Shown here piece by piece: positions 5,119-59,850 of a stretch of DNA of 64,000 bases (position 1 is its first letter; every line of letters begins with the position of its first letter). This DNA comes from an uncultured archaeon (GTDB taxonomy: Archaea; Aenigmatarchaeota; Aenigmatarchaeia; QMZP01; JACQNV01). Under the pieces are notes generated by a model that was not told where the DNA came from, made no database searches, and saw only the letters and a list, made by a program, of their open reading frames with translations. A program made the position numbers and the translations under genes. Location: contig CAYPFW010000002.1 in NCBI GenBank assembly GCA_964410585.1, positions 78,207 to 142,206 on the forward strand, in the 5' to 3' direction.

Positions 5119-5148
5119 TTGCTAACCTCTTTATTTTCAATTGTATAT

Positions 5149-5206
5149 CGTTTCTCTTTGGGTACGGTATACTTTCTCTTTTTGAAAGAGAAAGGATAGC
5201 TCTACT
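5149..5206 (+). ncRNA. Copy A of a repeated intergenic element: 5' box TTTCTCTTTGGGTACGGTAT, a 10-bp hairpin CTTTCTCTTT/AAAGAGAAAG, and a 3' box GGATAGCTC
   Basis: Conserved ends shared with copies at 45038, 52489, 57647 and (opposite strand) 16098. The hairpin shows compensatory changes (CTC/GAG) relative to copy B (T/A). It lies between the blaI stop and the blaR1 start. Confidence 0.45.
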
Positions 5207-5576
5207 TTGAAAACTTTTCATTAAAGTAAGCGACAGCAGACTTGCCAAATGTGTCTATCATTTTCTCAACAAACTTGTCCATCATTGAATACTCAAAATC
5301 TTTCTTCGAAAGCACTGGTGAGTAAATGTAGTGATAGCCTCCCCTTCCTGGTAGAGCCTTTCTCTTCACTAACTTTTTTTCAAAAAGCCTATCTAAAATA
5401 ACAGCAACACTAGTCAAAGCAACTTTTTGGTCTTTTTTCACAATAGAATGAAGTTCCCTTACTTTTGCAGACTCCCTTTCCCAAAGTGCGTACAAAACCT
5501 TTGCCTCTAGTGGGCTTAGAAAAGCTTCTGCACCTTCTTTTTCAAATCGAATCTTGTTTATTTCCATACTTTTCAC
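5202..5576 (-). CDS. BlaI/MecI/CopY-family transcriptional repressor
   Basis: 124-aa winged-helix protein with the typical family layout (LSPLEAKVLYALWE...LTSVAVILDRLFEKKLVKR). It is paired with the downstream M56 protease. Confidence 0.65.
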   Translation of the reverse strand: MKSMEINKIRFEKEGAEAFLSPLEAKVLYALWERESAKVRELHSIVKKDQKVALTSVAVILDRLFEKKLVKRKALPGRGGYHYIYSPVLSKKDFEYSMMDKFVEKMIDTFGKSAVAYFNEKFSK

Positions 5577-13393: not shown

Positions 13394-16105
13394 ATGAAAT
13401 GTCCTTTTTGCAGTCATCCAGAAACAAAGGTTATAGATAAAAGAGAGTCTGAAGAAGACTCAAACAGAAGAAGAAGGGAATGCCTTTCATGTGGCAAGCG
13501 CTTCACAACATACGAAAAGCTTGAGTTAAGCTCATCCAAAAAAGTCGACAAATTAGTGAAAAGAGATGGAAGAATAGCTGATTTTGATGCCTCAAGAATA
13601 GAGTCTGCAATTTTCAAGGCAGCAAAGGCAGTTGGTGGTACTGATAGAGAAAGGGCAAAAAAACTAGCAGACGAAGTAATGGAGCAAGTCAACAAAAAGT
13701 TCCTAGGGAAAAAAGACCTCCCAACAGTAGAAGACATCCAAGACATTGTTGAAAAAGTCCTCATCGAAAATGGTCATGCAAAAACAGCAAAGGCCTACAT
13801 CATTTACAGGCAAGAGCGTGCAGAGCTAAGAAATGAAAAAAGAAGAATCTTGGAAAAAGAAGATGTTGACGATGTTGACAAAGTTTTCGACCTAAATGCA
13901 CTTAGAGTTTTGAAATCCAGATATTTGCGAAAAGACGAAAACGGCAAGCTAATCGAAACCCCAAAGCAACTTTTTACTAGGGTAGCAACACATGGAGCGC
14001 TTCCAGATATTTTGTATGACCCTCAATTATACGACATCTCAAAATCTCAGCAACAGCACCCAAAAGAATCTTTCGATCCAAAAACAAACCACGAAAAATA
14101 CAGCATAGGAAAATACAAACTAAACCAATATCACCTGGATGCTTTCAAAAGAATGTATGATAGGTTCAACAAAAATCACCAAATGAAATTCTCATGGTCC
14201 CAGGTTTTGGAAAAGCTTTCAAAAGGTGAACTAAGTTCTTATGAAAAAAATATCACAGAGTTCTATGACATAATGGTCAACAGACAGTTCATGCCAAACA
14301 CACCGGCTATAGCTAATTTTGGAACAGTTCTAGGAATGGGCTCTGCTTGCTTTGTTTTGGGAATAAGAGACTCAATAGACGATATAATGGAAAAATTAAA
14401 ACATGCAGCAGTCATCTTCAAATCAGGCGGCGGAGTCGGCTACAACTTCTCACACCTAAGGCCTGAAGGCGATTTGGTTTCTTCAACATGCGGTCTTGCA
14501 TCTGGTCCCTTGTCTTTCATGTCTATGTTCGACAAAATGACAGAGGTCATCAAACAAGGTGGTATTCGCCGAGGCGCAAACATGGGAATAATGAACTCAG
14601 ATCACCCAGATATTGAAAAATTCATAACAGCAAAAGCAGGCAACAAGGCCTTCAAAAACTTCAACATCTCAGTAAATATCCAACCAGACTTTTGGCAATA
14701 CTATGAAAAAAATGAGCCCTATCCTTTAAGAAATCCAAGAGACGGAACAGTTGTCAAAACAGTTAATTCACGGATGCTTTTTGACAAAATAGTTTACCAG
14801 GCATGGGAATCAGCAGAGCCAGGAGTCATCTTTTCAGACAAAGTAAATGAATACAATCCTTTATACGAATCAATGGGCCCAATTGAAACAACAAATCCTT
14901 GCGGTGAGGTACTCTTGTATCCAAACGAGTCATGCAACCTAGGATCAATAAACGTCTGGGCTTTTGTCAAAGAAGATGTGGATGGAAATGTTTCCTTTGA
15001 TTGGGAAAACTTAGCCCGCGTCTCTCGGTTAGGAGAAAAATTCCTGGACAATGTCATCGAAGTAAACAAGTGGCCTCTACAAGACATAGAAGACATGGCC
15101 TTGAACACAAGAAAAACAGGCCTTGGTGTCATGGGAGTTGGCGACCTTTTGTATGAATTAGGTCTTCCTTATAATACAGATGAAGGCAGAAACTTCATGG
15201 AGAGGCTGATGGAATTTGTCAACTTCTACTCAAAAGTCGAAGGCATCGAACTTGCAAGAACAAGAGGACCTTTCCTATACTACGACAAAAGCTTCTATTC
15301 TGAAGGTAAGCTTCCTTTTGCTGGTTTCTACGACAAAAAATCCTGGAGAATGGACTGGAACCAAATAGTCGACGGCGTCCAAAAACATGGAGTAAGGAAT
15401 GCATTCACAATTGTCGTCGCTCCAACAGGATCAATATCAATGATAGCAGGCTGCTCTTCAGGCATTGAACCTGTCTATTCTTTGGTTTTCGAGAAAAATG
15501 TGAAAGTCGGTTCCTTCTACTATGTGAATCCTATATTCGAAAAATGGATGAGAAGAGAAGGCTTATTCGACGAAAAACTAGTAGAAGATGTAAATGCAAA
15601 CAAAGGAACAGTCAGAAGAGTCGGCTATATTCCAAGAAAATTCAAGGAAATGTTTATCACAGCAATGGACACAACGCCAGAAGACCATATAAGAGCCTTG
15701 GCAGCATTCCAAAAATGGGTTGACTCATCGATCTCAAAAACAAACAACTTCCCGGCAGATGCAACAGTTGAGGATATGAGACAATCTTATCTCCTTGCAT
15801 ACAAGCTAGGATGCAAAGATGTAACTGTGTTTAGAGACACATCAATAAAGGACCAGGTCTTGGTTTCAGGCGTTAAAAAGTCTGAAAAACACGCAGCTGA
15901 CACTGGTTTGAAACCTCAGTTAGGAAAAGAATGGACACCAGAACAACCAATAGCAGTTTCAACAAGTGGTAGTTTCTACCAACAACCAAAAGTAACTACA
16001 AACTTTGGGGAAAAGCCAAAAGTCTGCCCATCTTGTGGATCTGAAACCAAAAGAGAAGAAGGCTGTGTATCTTGCCCTGGCTGCGGTTGGGGCATGTGTA
16101 GCTAG
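13394..16105 (+). CDS. nrdJ: Class II (adenosylcobalamin-dependent) ribonucleotide reductase NrdJ with an N-terminal NrdR-like zinc ribbon plus ATP-cone and a C-terminal zinc ribbon
   Basis: N-terminus MKCPFCSHPETKVIDKRES...RRRECLSCGKRFTTYE matches the NrdR Zn ribbon; ATP-cone (VKRDGRIADFDASRIESAI). Catalytic core hallmarks: NPCGE (nt region 14881-14941), the LGSIN context, and the C-terminal CPSCGS...CVSCPGCG ribbon. Length 903 aa. Confidence 0.85.
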   Translation: MKCPFCSHPETKVIDKRESEEDSNRRRRECLSCGKRFTTYEKLELSSSKKVDKLVKRDGRIADFDASRIESAIFKAAKAVGGTDRERAKKLADEVMEQVNKKFLGKKDLPTVEDIQDIVEKVLIENGHAKTAKAYIIYRQERAELRNEKRRILEKEDVDDVDKVFDLNALRVLKSRYLRKDENGKLIETPKQLFTRVATHGALPDILYDPQLYDISKSQQQHPKESFDPKTNHEKYSIGKYKLNQYHLDAFKRMYDRFNKNHQMKFSWSQVLEKLSKGELSSYEKNITEFYDIMVNRQFMPNTPAIANFGTVLGMGSACFVLGIRDSIDDIMEKLKHAAVIFKSGGGVGYNFSHLRPEGDLVSSTCGLASGPLSFMSMFDKMTEVIKQGGIRRGANMGIMNSDHPDIEKFITAKAGNKAFKNFNISVNIQPDFWQYYEKNEPYPLRNPRDGTVVKTVNSRMLFDKIVYQAWESAEPGVIFSDKVNEYNPLYESMGPIETTNPCGEVLLYPNESCNLGSINVWAFVKEDVDGNVSFDWENLARVSRLGEKFLDNVIEVNKWPLQDIEDMALNTRKTGLGVMGVGDLLYELGLPYNTDEGRNFMERLMEFVNFYSKVEGIELARTRGPFLYYDKSFYSEGKLPFAGFYDKKSWRMDWNQIVDGVQKHGVRNAFTIVVAPTGSISMIAGCSSGIEPVYSLVFEKNVKVGSFYYVNPIFEKWMRREGLFDEKLVEDVNANKGTVRRVGYIPRKFKEMFITAMDTTPEDHIRALAAFQKWVDSSISKTNNFPADATVEDMRQSYLLAYKLGCKDVTVFRDTSIKDQVLVSGVKKSEKHAADTGLKPQLGKEWTPEQPIAVSTSGSFYQQPKVTTNFGEKPKVCPSCGSETKREEGCVSCPGCGWGMCS

Positions 16106-16228
16106 CCTTTTCCGGCAGTCCCCGCTTGCTCAAAAGGCTCGTGTCTCCAACTAGCAGAGTGAACTGTTAATAGTTCACAGACATCTCTGCATCATCTCCC
16201 GAGAGATGCAGATACCGTACCCAAAAAA
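16098..16228 (-). ncRNA. Copy E of the repeated intergenic element (reverse orientation) with a GC-rich insert of about 100 nt between the conserved ends
   Basis: On the minus strand the 5' end reads TTTTTTGGGTACGGTAT (plus 16212-16228) and the 3' end reads GAAAAGGCTAGC (plus 16098-16112, overlapping the RNR stop codon). The interior is GC-rich with hairpins (TCTGCATC...GATGCAGA). Confidence 0.4.
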
Positions 16229-16354
16229 CTACATTACAAAAGTGGAAGGCGTAATTTTTTCGAGCTTGCAAGCGAAGAAAAAATAGCCTCATGTTTTGGT
16301 TAAGCTTTTGGATAAAAGGTTAAGTCTGGGGTTCTCATCCAAAAAGAAAAAGTT

Positions 16355-44882: not shown

Positions 44883-45037
44883 ATGGTTAATAATTGTTCA
44901 GTGTATATAAATAATTTCTGATGATCATTCGACTAAAAAATAAAAAATCCCGGGAGTGAGACACTCGAAAAGTTGGTAAACCAACAATTTATCGAATTCG
45001 TGGCTCAGTTCTTTGAACAGACCGCTTATGTATAATA

Positions 45038-45090
45038 GTTTTCTTTGGGTACGGTAGACTTTCTTTTTCTAAAAGAAAGGCTAGCACTCA
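45038..45090 (+). ncRNA. Copy B of the repeated intergenic element: 5' box TTTTCTTTGGGTACGGTAGA, 9-bp hairpin CTTTCTTTT/AAAAGAAAG (loop TCT), 3' box GCTAGCACTC; followed by a 110-nt GC-rich stretch (45091-45200)
   Basis: Near-identical ends to copies A, D and E. The adjacent GC-rich segment contains long-range complementary blocks (TATCGG/CCGATCG). Confidence 0.45.
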
Positions 45091-45272
45091 CGACCTATCG
45101 GTGTCTGAACGATTGCGTTTGGCAAATGCTAAACTGCACGCGCCTACAGCCGATCGCTCTAAGCCACTGGGCTACCCCGGGATTGTATTATTTGCAACGA
45201 GTGATTTATATTAGTTTTTGGATGAGCAACTCAATCAACGCTTTTAATCCAATATATTCAACTAATTATATG

Positions 45273-52478: not shown

Positions 52479-52488
52479 ATTTGAATAT

Positions 52489-52533
52489 TATTTTTCTTTA
52501 TGTACGGCTCTCTTTCTTTTTCTAAAAGAAATA
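52489..52533 (+). ncRNA. Copy C of the repeated intergenic element (degenerate: TTTTTCTTTATGTACGGCTC plus 8-bp hairpin TTTCTTTT/AAAAGAAA)
   Basis: Matches copy B over CTTTCTTTTTCTAAAAGAAA; the 3' box is lost. It sits 11-55 bp upstream of the truD start. Confidence 0.35.
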
Positions 52534-57252: not shown

Positions 57253-57609
57253 TCAATTTGCTCTTTTTAAATGTTTTTTGGCTGCTTTTTCCCTCCTATA
57301 AGGAAATCTTATCTTTTTTCCGCATTCTTTGCACAAAACTTCAACTGCTTTCTGTTTAGTGTTTGCCCTGTGCACAGAGTTTACCCCAGGGACAAGATAG
57401 GATTTGCAGTGTTTGCAAAATTTTCTTTTGAGTTCTTTTTGAATCTTGACATTGTATCTCATGCCAATTTTTCTGGCCAATTCAACATACCTGTTTGCAT
57501 ATTTTTTGTTTTCCTTGAATTCTTTTTCAGCTAAATCGAAAAGGATTGCTATTCTTTCTTTTGCTATGTCTGTTTGCCATTTTGGCTTATCTCTATTTCT
57601 GCGATCCAT
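57253..57609 (-). CDS. rnp4: RNase P protein subunit Rpp21 (Rpr2/RNP4)
   Basis: Zinc ribbon CKHCKSY...CKECGKK and a basic N-terminal helix. Confidence 0.7.
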   Translation of the reverse strand: MDRRNRDKPKWQTDIAKERIAILFDLAEKEFKENKKYANRYVELARKIGMRYNVKIQKELKRKFCKHCKSYLVPGVNSVHRANTKQKAVEVLCKECGKKIRFPYRREKAAKKHLKRAN

Positions 57610-57646
57610 AGGTAAATAGAATTAGTTGCTTATGATTTGTATCCTA

Positions 57647-57930
57647 GTTTTCTTTGGGGTACCTTACCACTTTCTTTTTCGTGTCTCCTCTTTGCAAAGT
57701 TGACACGAGATCAGTGTCTCAGCAATGCAATGGACACTGAGACATCTCATCATCCAATATACTCTGTGAGATGCTGATTGAGTGAGCAACAGCGAACTCC
57801 TGATACAGAAACTGATCCGCAGATCAGTTTCCAGCTACGACTGTGCTCACTGCTCATGTGCTGTTGCACATGACATCTCGTCATCTCTTACACCGGCGAG
57901 ATGCCGATCTAAAAGAAAGGGGTTAGACTC
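57647..57930 (+). ncRNA. Copy D of the repeated element: conserved ends (TTTTCTTTGGGGTACCTTACCACTTTCTTTTTC ... TCTAAAAGAAAGGGGTTAGACTC) enclosing a 227-nt GC-rich structured insert (57681-57907)
   Basis: The two hairpin arms of the short copies are here separated by an insert rich in inverted repeats (GTGTCTCAGCAATGCAATGGACACTGAGAC) and two GACATCTC(A/G)TCATC motifs. The supplied ORF 57782-58024 lies inside and is considered spurious. Confidence 0.45.
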
Positions 57931-58360
57931 TTTTCAAAATAATACCGCCAGCTCCGCGTGCTGCGAAATTGTGCATAATATCTGCAATAGAATTCACAAT
58001 GCCATCTGCTTCCCACGCTTTTAGTTTTATTTCTTCAGGCTCCAAGACTTCAACACTAGAAGGGCCATAGTTCATTGCAACAAAAACAAGCCTTTCATAG
58101 CCTTCAGTCAACACCTCTAATTCAACTACATATGAATAGGCTTCTGGAACATTTGGAAATGGCTTTTCCACTTTTCTTGATTCTTTCCAGTCTATTTTAG
58201 AAAGCAAAACGCCTTTTTCATTCTCGAGTTTCTGGACGTGTTTTTGCAAAGCATCCTTGGCAGCTTCTTCGTTTATCGCCATGACCTCGATAAACATCTG
58301 TGACCTTATCCATCCATCCTTCATTTTTTGCTTTACGATGTCTTTGATGTCTTTGCTCAT
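57923..58360 (-). CDS. Hypothetical protein
   Basis: 145 aa, no motif recognised; its stop overlaps the 3' box of element D. Confidence 0.35.
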   Translation of the reverse strand: MSKDIKDIVKQKMKDGWIRSQMFIEVMAINEEAAKDALQKHVQKLENEKGVLLSKIDWKESRKVEKPFPNVPEAYSYVVELEVLTEGYERLVFVAMNYGPSSVEVLEPEEIKLKAWEADGIVNSIADIMHNFAARGAGGIILKRV

Positions 58361-58664: not shown

Positions 58665-59762
58665 ATGTGTATGTACCTTGAATATGTAAGAACTTACCTT
58701 TCAGCAGATGAAAGGTTGACAGAAAAACAAAGAGACAGGCTAGCTCAAAGAATCATTAGATGGGCAGAAGATAATGATGTAAGAGACATAAGTAGATTGC
58801 ATGACAAGCTTGTTGATTGGATCGATCAGCCTTCGATTCAAGAGGAGAAATTTGAAAATGTTGAACATCCATTGGATAATGATGGCGATGTCAACCTTTT
58901 AGAAGACCCAAAATCACAAACACCTGTTGATTTGTTTGTTATAGGAGAACGAGAGATACTAACTGGAGACCAACTGAGGGGAATGATACTTGAGGAAAGT
59001 CCAGAATTGTCTGGTATTGCCTCTGTCATATTGCCTGAGAGCAGAGTTGTTGGCGACAATGTAGATTTAGATGGAATTGAAAACAGACTTAGAGGTATTG
59101 TTCCAAGAATCAAATGTGGTAAACTTCTTATCCCACAAAAACAAGTTCTGTGTATACGTTTTGATGAAAGTGGAAATTTGCAGATAGCCTACAAAAGAGG
59201 CTATCAGGATGACAGAGTCAATGAGGCTCTGAGGCTTTATTCTGAATTATTGACAGTCCAGGAAATAGGCCCTAGAATAGGTGTGAGCCCATCAACAGTT
59301 TGCACTTGGCTGTACAAGGATATGGGCCTGATGCCGGCACGCGACCTAAAAGTTGCAAGACAAATACAAACAGCAGTGAAACTTTTTGATGAAGGCAAGG
59401 AAGTACAGGAAATTATGGATATAATGAAATCGACACAGACAACTGTCTGGAGATGGTTGAATAGAGCTGGTGTTGAGTTCAACTCAAGGGGACCAGAACC
59501 TTGGGTATATGAGACTAAAGTCAGACTCAGTTTGTCGGATTTAGATGAAATATATTCCCAAATAAATCCAACTTTTAGACAAAGAAACAACTACAGGGAA
59601 ATTTTCAAATACATAAAAAATTTTGAGAAAGAAAACAAAAGAGGTCCAAGCAGAGATGAAATTTCAGATGCTCTTGGTGTTGATCCTTGGAAGACGCTTC
59701 AAGTTTTTGTTGAATATGGGATCTTAGAAAAAAGAAGGCTCCCAAGACGATTTTATGTCTAA
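58665..59762 (+). CDS. Hypothetical protein with multiple helix-turn-helix-like segments
   Basis: Three HTH-like stretches (GVSPSTVCTWLYKD, TTVWRWLNRAGVEF, ISDALGVDPWKTLQVFVEYGIL). It is flanked by tRNA-Pro and tRNA-Thr. Confidence 0.35.
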   Translation: MCMYLEYVRTYLSADERLTEKQRDRLAQRIIRWAEDNDVRDISRLHDKLVDWIDQPSIQEEKFENVEHPLDNDGDVNLLEDPKSQTPVDLFVIGEREILTGDQLRGMILEESPELSGIASVILPESRVVGDNVDLDGIENRLRGIVPRIKCGKLLIPQKQVLCIRFDESGNLQIAYKRGYQDDRVNEALRLYSELLTVQEIGPRIGVSPSTVCTWLYKDMGLMPARDLKVARQIQTAVKLFDEGKEVQEIMDIMKSTQTTVWRWLNRAGVEFNSRGPEPWVYETKVRLSLSDLDEIYSQINPTFRQRNNYREIFKYIKNFEKENKRGPSRDEISDALGVDPWKTLQVFVEYGILEKRRLPRRFYV

Positions 59763-59763
59763 A

Positions 59764-59850
59764 AGCCCCAAGGGAGAATTGAACTCCCAACCTACAGTTT
59801 ACGAAAATCGACATACAAATTCTGTCGCTCTACCATTGAGCTACTGAGGC
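59764..59850 (-). tRNA. tRNA-Thr (anticodon CGU) interrupted by a 15-nt intron at the non-canonical position 30/31
   Basis: Exon 1 = 59822-59850, intron = 59807-59821 (AATTTGTATGTCGAT), exon 2 = 59764-59806. The spliced product has anticodon stem ACAGT/ACTGT, loop TTCGTAA, T-loop TTCAATT, discriminator U. The splice sites sit in 3-nt bulges (AG^A and AT^T) flanking a perfect 4-bp helix CGAC/GTCG (relaxed BHB). Confidence 0.7.

Follow-up and report, generated by a model that had tools for sequence, protein, structure and literature searches.

A composite modular hairpin element between the arms of a palindrome upstream of rpp21 in an aenigmatarchaeal contig

Directly upstream of the RNase P protein gene rpp21, in a 64,000-nt stretch of contig CAYPFW010000002.1 from an uncultured archaeon of the Aenigmatarchaeota (the window, to whose numbering all coordinates refer unless another locus is named), the two arms of a recurrent palindromic hairpin are held apart by 227 nt. 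The hairpin belongs to a short host element of which the window holds copies A to E, and the split copy is copy D. The D insert is almost certainly a composite copy, made up of the units A, X1-Y1, B and X2-Y2, of a dispersed family of modular hairpin elements that is found in DPANN-like archaea, is uncatalogued and has no match in Rfam 15. It probably came to lie there by insertion into the loop of a pre-existing hairpin and is not an RNA designed around the host stem. We see about an even chance that it is a dispersed palindromic repeat comparable to the bacterial repetitive extragenic palindromic sequences and bacterial interspersed mosaic elements (REP/BIME) or to BOX elements.

The insert (57681-57907) extends from the left arm ACTTTCTTTTTC, which ends at 57680, to TCTAAAAGAAAGGGGTTAGACTC, which starts at 57908, exactly the separation given by an earlier note on this DNA, and the host arms can form 12 pairs with one A.G mismatch (Table 1). 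That note had also described the insert as GC-rich and full of inverted repeats, and both descriptions hold. Its GC content is 48.0% against 36.6% for the window, which places it in the top 0.55% of 227-nt windows, and the 296-nt region folds with a minimum free energy (MFE) of -110.7 kcal/mol (z -7.1) for the + strand and -111.7 kcal/mol (z -6.5) for the - strand, a stability reached by none of 200 shuffles. The motif GACATCTC(A/G)TCATC occurs exactly twice, as had been noticed, at 57741 and 57872, where no occurrence is expected. It had been said to recur in copy E; there the exact motif is absent and is approached only with two mismatches (GACATCTCTGCATC, 16180), but the whole unit CATCTC...GAGATG is present (39 bits).

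Related elements were sought with the pattern GACATCTCNNCATC-N(3-30)-GAGATGCNGAT, derived from three terminal hairpins and scanned against a metagenome collection and viral contigs. It returned 64 metagenome loci (numbered with the prefix L) and no locus in the viral contigs. Three of the 64 are false positives in coding sequence and about 61 look genuine. Together the 64 loci and the window hold 86 matches, with up to three copies per locus of 3-15 kb, and element length runs from 48 nt (H1+Y) up to some 260 nt, with two to at least six hairpins. One locus, L027, matches nearly the whole D insert (nhmmer E=2.4e-35) and has one extra internal unit, and 18 further loci match parts of it. With a two-hairpin covariance model, exactly three copies are detected in the window (X1+Y1, X2+Y2 and the unit in copy E), each of them on the + strand; seven loci of relatives contain no copy. 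Searches of 32 element-bearing loci against Rfam gave no match to any family. A literature search with the motif strings gave only unrelated primer matches, and in the literature on DPANN repeats and archaeal transposable elements of the miniature inverted-repeat type (MITEs) nothing specific to the element was found.

The search pattern fixed most stem bases, and covariation can be read at few positions only. A feature that the pattern did not demand is a hairpin abutting GACATCTC, which is either UCGUGUC-loop-GACACGA (H1) or CNUGUGC-loop-GCACAN'G (X). Position N of the latter covaries through all four Watson-Crick pairs, and stem position 3 of H1 also covaries (GC 21, AU 2, UA 2, CG 1). In seven B-X-Y regions the B helix G[A/U]GUGAGC / GCUCAC[U/A], the X hairpin and the Y hairpin are all kept with compensatory changes; in this alignment (A2) the B helix shows an A-U to U-A swap, three sequences against three, and both the X stem (AU 3, GC 3, UA 1) and the Y stem (GC 3, UA 2, AU 1) covary. 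L027 does not preserve the long-range helix AUCAGUGUCUCA/UGAGAUGCUGAU of the MFE fold, and the local hairpins are therefore favored. A UNCG tetraloop (UGCG on the - strand), considered as an argument for strand, was dropped since L027 does not keep it either. Paralogous loci can be mosaics: the 75-nt interior common to L019 and L036 differs at a single base, and the terminal hairpins of the two are different.

The 5' arm of the Y hairpin carries a direct repeat (CATCTC nn CATC, for example at 57741-57778, 57872-57908 and 16180-16213), with which GAGATG can pair in two registers. The free base n1 that follows CATCTC is complementary to N of GAGATGC-N-GAT in 53 of 53 genuine cases and to the base preceding GAGATG in 46 of 53, and two mutually exclusive registers are therefore each supported. 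A K-turn reading of GA / CnGAU around this hairpin is disfavored, as it would need a 2-nt and not a 3-nt bulge and leaves the n1-N covariation unexplained.

The window also holds the host hairpin in its empty state. Unsplit hairpins stand at 5142-5191, 45029-45078 and 52482-52531, all with the left block TGTATAnTAG TTTTCTTTGGGTACGGTAnAC. In copies B and C the sequence is CTTTCTTTT-TCT-AAAAGAAAG, in copy D it is CTTTCTTTT-TC[227 nt]TCT-AAAAGAAAG; the difference consists only of the insert and an ambiguous TC, and D is therefore an empty site plus the insert, with a 2-nt ambiguity. Copy A carries compensatory changes in its stem (CTTTCTCTTT/AAAGAGAAAG). The filled arrangement of D, with the unit in the hairpin loop, recurs in L045, L048 and L072, and in L066 the unit lies beside an intact hairpin. 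Copy E follows a 903-aa open reading frame (ORF) on the + strand and carries TCGTGTCTCC...GACATCTCTGCATCATCTCCCGAGAGATGCAGAT, with the same start and end as the D insert; its unit lies outside the hairpin loop, and nine loci likewise have the unit between the hairpin and CCCAAAGAAA. The units of D and E are oppositely oriented with respect to their host elements, D being antisense and E sense to the neighboring genes.

The earlier note had taken the conserved hairpin to be the closing helix of a larger RNA and had named insertion into the element loop as an alternative. The unsplit copies B and C and the filled loci support the alternative. Against the closing helix stand the multi-copy, modular nature of the unit, its inverted position outside the hairpin in E, and a syntenic relative, L009, in which the two flanking genes lie 4 nt apart without such an RNA. 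Complementary flanks of at least six contiguous bases, usually T-tract/A-tract palindromes, enclose only 25 of 54 distinct elements, where about four would be expected, and about half of the elements lack enclosing flanks of this kind.

Across the family the elements occupy intergenic sites; a crude ORF call gives 13 divergent, 7 convergent and 26 tandem contexts, and the orientation of the elements looks random; exceptions to the co-orientation of copies on one contig are L040, L050, L060 and L034. A fold comparison between strands divided the elements 34 to 19 (p=0.08), with 115 against 106 G.U pairs, and neither difference is significant. We favor the reading as a REP/BIME- or BOX-like repeat because the elements are indifferent to orientation and mosaic in make-up, because sites exist both empty and filled, and because the strands show no asymmetry. 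The elements share with REP/BIME and BOX repeats short palindromic units that are intergenic, form variable mosaics and occur in both orientations, and with MITEs dispersed copies at empty and filled sites, as seen in the empty hairpins of the window and in a pair of tRNA introns, of which that of L077 has the palindrome only and that of L017 the palindrome and the element. Such a repeat would consist of conserved palindromic units joined by a GAGAU/GAU junction, in variable number and order and in either orientation, would occupy harmless non-coding sites such as hairpin loops and introns, and would stay uniform through selection or gene conversion. At D, the palindrome that lies after the stop codon of an MJ0538-family gene and before the rpp21 start would act as a bidirectional terminator-like hairpin, which the element would have reached by insertion or recombination; if the spacer were read through, the host arms would enclose a multi-hairpin RNA in a closing stem. 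That the element moves as DNA, that the palindrome terminates transcription and that rpp21 expression is affected are predictions drawn from the sequence.

Several findings count against a simple repeat. Between the orthologous loci L021 and L070 the element is 95% identical and the flanks 75% and 62%, and between L053 and L065 the figures are 86% against 56% and 59%; this slower divergence fits purifying selection on a function, in RNA or in protein binding, at least as well as selfish spread, with gene conversion among copies as an alternative to selection. The primary sequence is strongly conserved across contigs of widely differing flanking GC content. Terminal inverted similarity is short (TCGYRTCTC / GAGAYRCnGA): TCGTGTCTC and GAGATGCnGAT, the two ends of the element, show inverted similarity along roughly 9 nt (TCGYRTCTC) and are also arms of internal hairpins. 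There is no clear target-site duplication, the TC found on both sides in D, L045, L048 and L072 (TTTT TC[...]GA TC T AAAA) overlapping the conserved element ends and the other loci showing no duplication, and within 2.5 kb of the elements there is neither a recurrent protein family nor a transposase. Finally, a simple repeat model leaves unexplained why two exclusive terminal-hairpin registers should both show covariation. Because conservation is strong, the junction bases are invariant and neither a transposase nor a clear target duplication was found, we regard a function as an RNA or as a protein-binding site as possible, though not probable. An IS200/IS605-type model was rejected, as the left-flank target is not conserved, and integron attC and origin-recognition-box models misfit the consensus and have the wrong context.

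Like bacterial REP/BIME sequences (surveyed in PMC12306157), the elements are short imperfect palindromes with a conserved flanking motif, are present in many copies, are intergenic and often stand at gene ends, and they form variable mosaics in either orientation that are more conserved than the surrounding spacer. They differ in belonging to DPANN-like archaea, in sequence, in their long variable loops and in the larger B domain, and no transposase of the REP-associated tyrosine transposase (RAYT) type was seen, the window not having been screened protein by protein for RAYT/HUH. The family core is also conserved across contigs of very different composition, whereas REP elements are usually species-specific. 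With the BOX elements of S. pneumoniae (boxA-boxB(n)-boxC) and MITE-like repeats the family shares first and last units that are fixed, internal units that vary in number, a strongly structured predicted fold and the lack of coding capacity; it has no sequence relation to BOX, belongs to another domain of life and is only putatively mobile. Provided that the family is genuine, as is indicated by the 60-odd loci, compact genomes of the DPANN type carry a sequence-conserved modular hairpin element in terminator-like palindromes and T-loop introns. The element gives rise to spurious ORFs, conceals interrupted tRNA genes from tRNA-finding programs and causes breaks in assemblies; for RNA discovery, the family is one that is missing from Rfam 15.

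It is possible, if doubtful, that the elements are instead genes for small structured non-coding RNAs that act in trans, probably as ribonucleoproteins. Like archaeal C/D box small RNAs (sRNAs), such RNAs would be encoded in arbitrary contexts, tRNA introns included, and would be trimmed from longer transcripts, with the flanking arms as a terminal stem. The stems do covary, and the junctions CGAGAC, GCnGAU, GAUUGAGUGAGC and UUCCARYUACGACUGUGCUCAC are invariant across many loci; conservation above the flanks at orthologous loci, the closing stem in the flanks of 25 of 54 elements and a fold z of about -7 point the same way. Copies within bulge-helix-bulge introns would even be released as RNA, but in three of four such introns the motif strand is antisense to the tRNA. 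No conserved promoter accompanies the motif strand, and at D polymerases arriving from either side meet T-tracts before they reach the insert. G.U wobbles are slightly commoner on the motif strand, but the strand asymmetry in stability is not significant, and the wide variation in the number and order of units is unusual for an RNA with one defined function. The likeness to C/D box sRNA genes, one of which lies in a tRNA-Trp intron, extends to small size, structure and arbitrary contexts, sometimes in tRNA introns; the elements have no C, D, C' or D' boxes, match Rfam C/D models only at E>3 and are inconsistently oriented in introns.

In L036, L048, L017 and L075 the palindrome and the element interrupt a tRNA gene after the T-loop and before the 3' strand of its T-stem, in three introns antisense to the tRNA and in one sense. 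The junctions T-stem-UUCA-AAU...UGAA-AAU-T-stem comprise an outer helix, a 4-bp helix and two 3-nt bulges and place the intron at 59/60, a known non-canonical position of archaeal tRNA introns (PMC4090602). A bulge-helix-bulge scan recovers clean motifs in L036 and L048, and ARAGORN calls tRNAs in L036 and L017 after in-silico splicing; with its intron options, ARAGORN gave only low-quality artefacts on four element regions. The interior of the L048 intron is the host element of the window, with GCUAGCC, the hairpin, CUACCGUACCC, AAGAAAAC and UAAAAUACA. Some element-bearing tRNA introns contain runs of 5-7 T, and the tRNA of L017 has a second intron, again with a T/A palindrome. Similar introns in unrelated tRNAs imply intron transposition, by a mechanism that is unknown and probably acts at the DNA level (PMC4090602); here, empty and filled hairpins can be compared between protein genes and within tRNAs.

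The introns resemble the transposed tRNA introns of Thermoproteales and non-canonical 59/60 bulge-helix-bulge introns in that related copies of the element lie in T-loops at 59/60 with a helix, a 4-bp helix and 3-nt bulges. The element introns differ in their far greater length (110-210 nt) and in their T-runs; the cassette is also present between protein genes, and copy D is outside a tRNA and without the motif. A rather unlikely proposal is that the hairpin-plus-module cassette is the mobile agent, or the cargo, of archaeal tRNA intron transposition and targets structure, entering DNA or RNA hairpin loops such as tRNA T-loops and terminator palindromes. In tRNAs the cassette would then be tolerated since it arrives with, or creates, a bulge-helix-bulge motif at which the splicing endonuclease would remove a probably circular RNA, and the two covarying registers of the terminal hairpin would serve as a conformational switch or in end recognition. 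For D itself, we consider it very improbable that the spacer or the insert is a bulge-helix-bulge intron, excised from a polycistronic RNA and circularized so as to restore the tight gene junction of relatives. The cassette does lie in such introns in the four loci above, and in L009 the genes are 4 nt apart; yet a scan across the D boundaries gave three weak AT-rich candidates against 2.0 expected in shuffles, none with a credible outer helix. The circularized RNA suggested by the earlier note thus has no motif above chance at D, and circularization is plausible for the relatives that lie in tRNA introns.

One of the host-element copies in the window touches a tRNA gene as well. A tRNA-Tyr(GTA) at 44948-45181 (-) has C1-G72 and a 41-nt canonical intron, and copy C lies between the halves of its T-stem (45091-45087 and 44960-44956), which are separated by about 125 nt. 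ARAGORN and Rfam miss the gene as it stands; after in-silico deletion of the intervening stretch ARAGORN calls a tRNA-Tyr. T-loop bases are lacking at the 5' junction and a clean bulge-helix-bulge motif was not found at this gene, which may be split or a pseudogene, or may contain a relaxed intron.

On the gene strand the host element runs from the gene end through the T-tract/A-tract hairpin and T(C/A)TACCGTACCC to AAAGAAAAC and then a TATA-like box; at D, an A-rich stretch followed by a TATA-like box remains about 30 nt before the rpp21 start. By its sequence the element may combine a terminator-like palindrome with a promoter-like block, a candidate promoter whose spacing to the next start codon varies. 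The other copies span 5142-5215 (-), 45029-45095 (-), 52482-52531 (-) and 16097-16240 (+), each oriented as the neighboring genes. Related blocks, GGGTACGGTA beside T/A hairpins, recur in L043, L048 and L066.

The genes flanking D are all on the - strand, and rpp21 heads a cluster rpp21-S19e-dsDNA-binding protein-L31e downstream of the element. The earlier note had placed D between rnp4 (Rpp21) and a hypothetical gene; the position is right, and the second gene (57923-58360) belongs to the conserved family PF27325/MJ0538, with 25 homologues. What that note called a 3' box is in part coding sequence: GGGGTTAGACTC, within it, is the complement of the last codons and TAA stop of the MJ0538-family gene (AGA GTC TAA), whose C-terminus ...GGIILKRV is conserved in the closest homologues. 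By protein similarity the nearest named relatives of the window are metagenome-assembled genomes of Aenigmatarchaeota and Nanoarchaeota, and an S19e scan of the genome collection found only distant relatives (at most 53% identity). The syntenic relative L009 has both flanking genes in the same order (MJ0538 60% and Rpp21 62% identical) and no element between them; L013 (66% identical) has no D-like sequence past the MJ0538 stop; and in L001 and L002 different genes precede rpp21, again without the element.

These comparisons bear on whether the insert acts in cis, as an RNA element within the MJ0538-rpp21 transcript, either as a 3' stabilizer or terminator or as a protein-bound leader or regulator of the downstream operon. 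Lying between a stop codon and the rpp21 start, it is on a likely read-through path, the T-tract of the - strand being only T3CT4, and comparably strong hairpins, such as those of REP elements, protect bacterial 3' ends. The closest syntenic relatives nevertheless do without it, the family has no orientation bias towards genes and no recurrent neighboring gene, and D is antisense to its neighbors whereas E is sense. We judge a cis-acting role improbable, and the position next to an RNase P protein gene appears coincidental.

That position, a length of about 250 nt with a closing stem and the high degree of structure could also suggest a very divergent RNase P RNA, signal recognition particle (SRP) RNA or other housekeeping RNA. 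At gathering score, Rfam 15 finds two tRNAs only in the whole window, and at E<=10 region 57500-58050 gives no match to RNase P, SRP or H/ACA models and only chance-level C/D matches (E 3.2 and 7.4). The unit is moreover not single-copy, with three motif copies in the window and variable modular forms elsewhere, and it is absent from this position in the rpp21-bearing relatives L001, L002 and L009. A housekeeping RNA has next to no probability on these results, and the RNase P RNA reading is effectively refuted. The earlier note had linked the locus to RNase P and had itself seen no convincing RNase P motifs; the Rfam search yields nothing for the link and agrees with the latter remark, there being no CR-I. 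Two local resemblances were also discarded: ACAGAAAC at 57805-57812 merely resembles CR-V, with no P4 partner and no CR-I, and the hammerhead-like CUGAUUGAG...CGAAC has an extra base in its core and no Rfam match.

An open frame does exist at 57782-58024, but that it encodes an 80-aa small protein is scarcely credible: the frame matches nothing in Pfam, a search of 5.8 billion proteins found no homologue of it, it overlaps the conserved MJ0538-family C-terminus on the opposite strand, and homologous elements differ by loop indels of arbitrary length. A conserved protein homologue was what would have spoken against the structured non-coding element that the earlier note proposed; none was found, and the matter therefore resolves towards a non-coding element.

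Table 1. Features of the D locus and of related elements (positions in the window unless a locus is named).
Feature	Position	Strand	Description
rpp21 (Rpr2/Rpp21)	57253-57609	-	Pfam Rpr2 E=1e-17
Remainder of host element at D	57637-57666	-	TGGTAAGGTACCCC AAAGAAAAC TAGGATACAA; conserved in copies A, B, C, E and metagenome loci
Left arm of host palindromic hairpin	57667-57678		CCACTTTCTTTT; T-tract on + strand; identical to arm in unsplit copies B, C
Unit A (H1)	57679-57708	+	TCGTGTC / GACACGA, 16-nt loop with CTTTGCAAAG; opens most family members
First two-hairpin unit, X1+Y1	57711-57778	+	GTCTCAG/CTGAGAC, then GACATCTCATCATC...TGAGATGCTGAT; covariance model R1, 52.9 bits, E=3e-10
B domain	57779-57853	+	Long-range helix AGTGAGC (57781-57787) / GCTCACT (57845-57851); alignment A2, 7 homologues
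B-domain inner hairpin	57808-57831	+	GAAACTGATC-CGCA-GATCAGTTTC; compensatory A-U to G-C change in L027
Second two-hairpin unit, X2+Y2	57854-57908	+	TCATGTGC-TGTT-GCACATGA, then GACATCTCGTCATC...CGAGATGCCGAT; R1 42.7 bits, E=7e-8
Right arm of host hairpin	57911-57922		AAAAGAAAGGGG; pairs with 57667-57678
MJ0538-family gene, 145 aa	57923-58360	-	PF27325 MJ0538; stop codon abuts right arm
Short related unit in copy E	16139-16213	+	Covariance model 39.2 bits; between hairpin and ACCGTACCC, outside hairpin loop
T-loop (59/60) introns, 110-210 nt	L036 3243-3469; L048 4118-4328; L017 1254-1380; L075 3496-3681; L077 369-415	+; -; -; -; +	T/A-tract palindrome with the element in or next to it; palindrome alone in L077

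Two short-read contigs from the same population, L008 and L014, stop at 57665, the edge of the host hairpin, and at 57842, within the insert, behavior that would be expected of a repeat or a polymorphic site.

Beyond the MJ0538-family gene, a 365-aa protein with tandem helix-turn-helix domains is encoded at 58665-59762 (+). Its similarity to the helix-turn-helix of IS630 transposase and to the CRISPR-repeat-binding protein Cbp1 is weak and sub-threshold, and no homologue of it was found in the element-bearing loci. It is absent from the syntenic L009, together with the adjacent tRNA-Lys(UUU) at 59764-59850 (-), which at 87 nt is longer than a standard tRNA and may contain a short intron.

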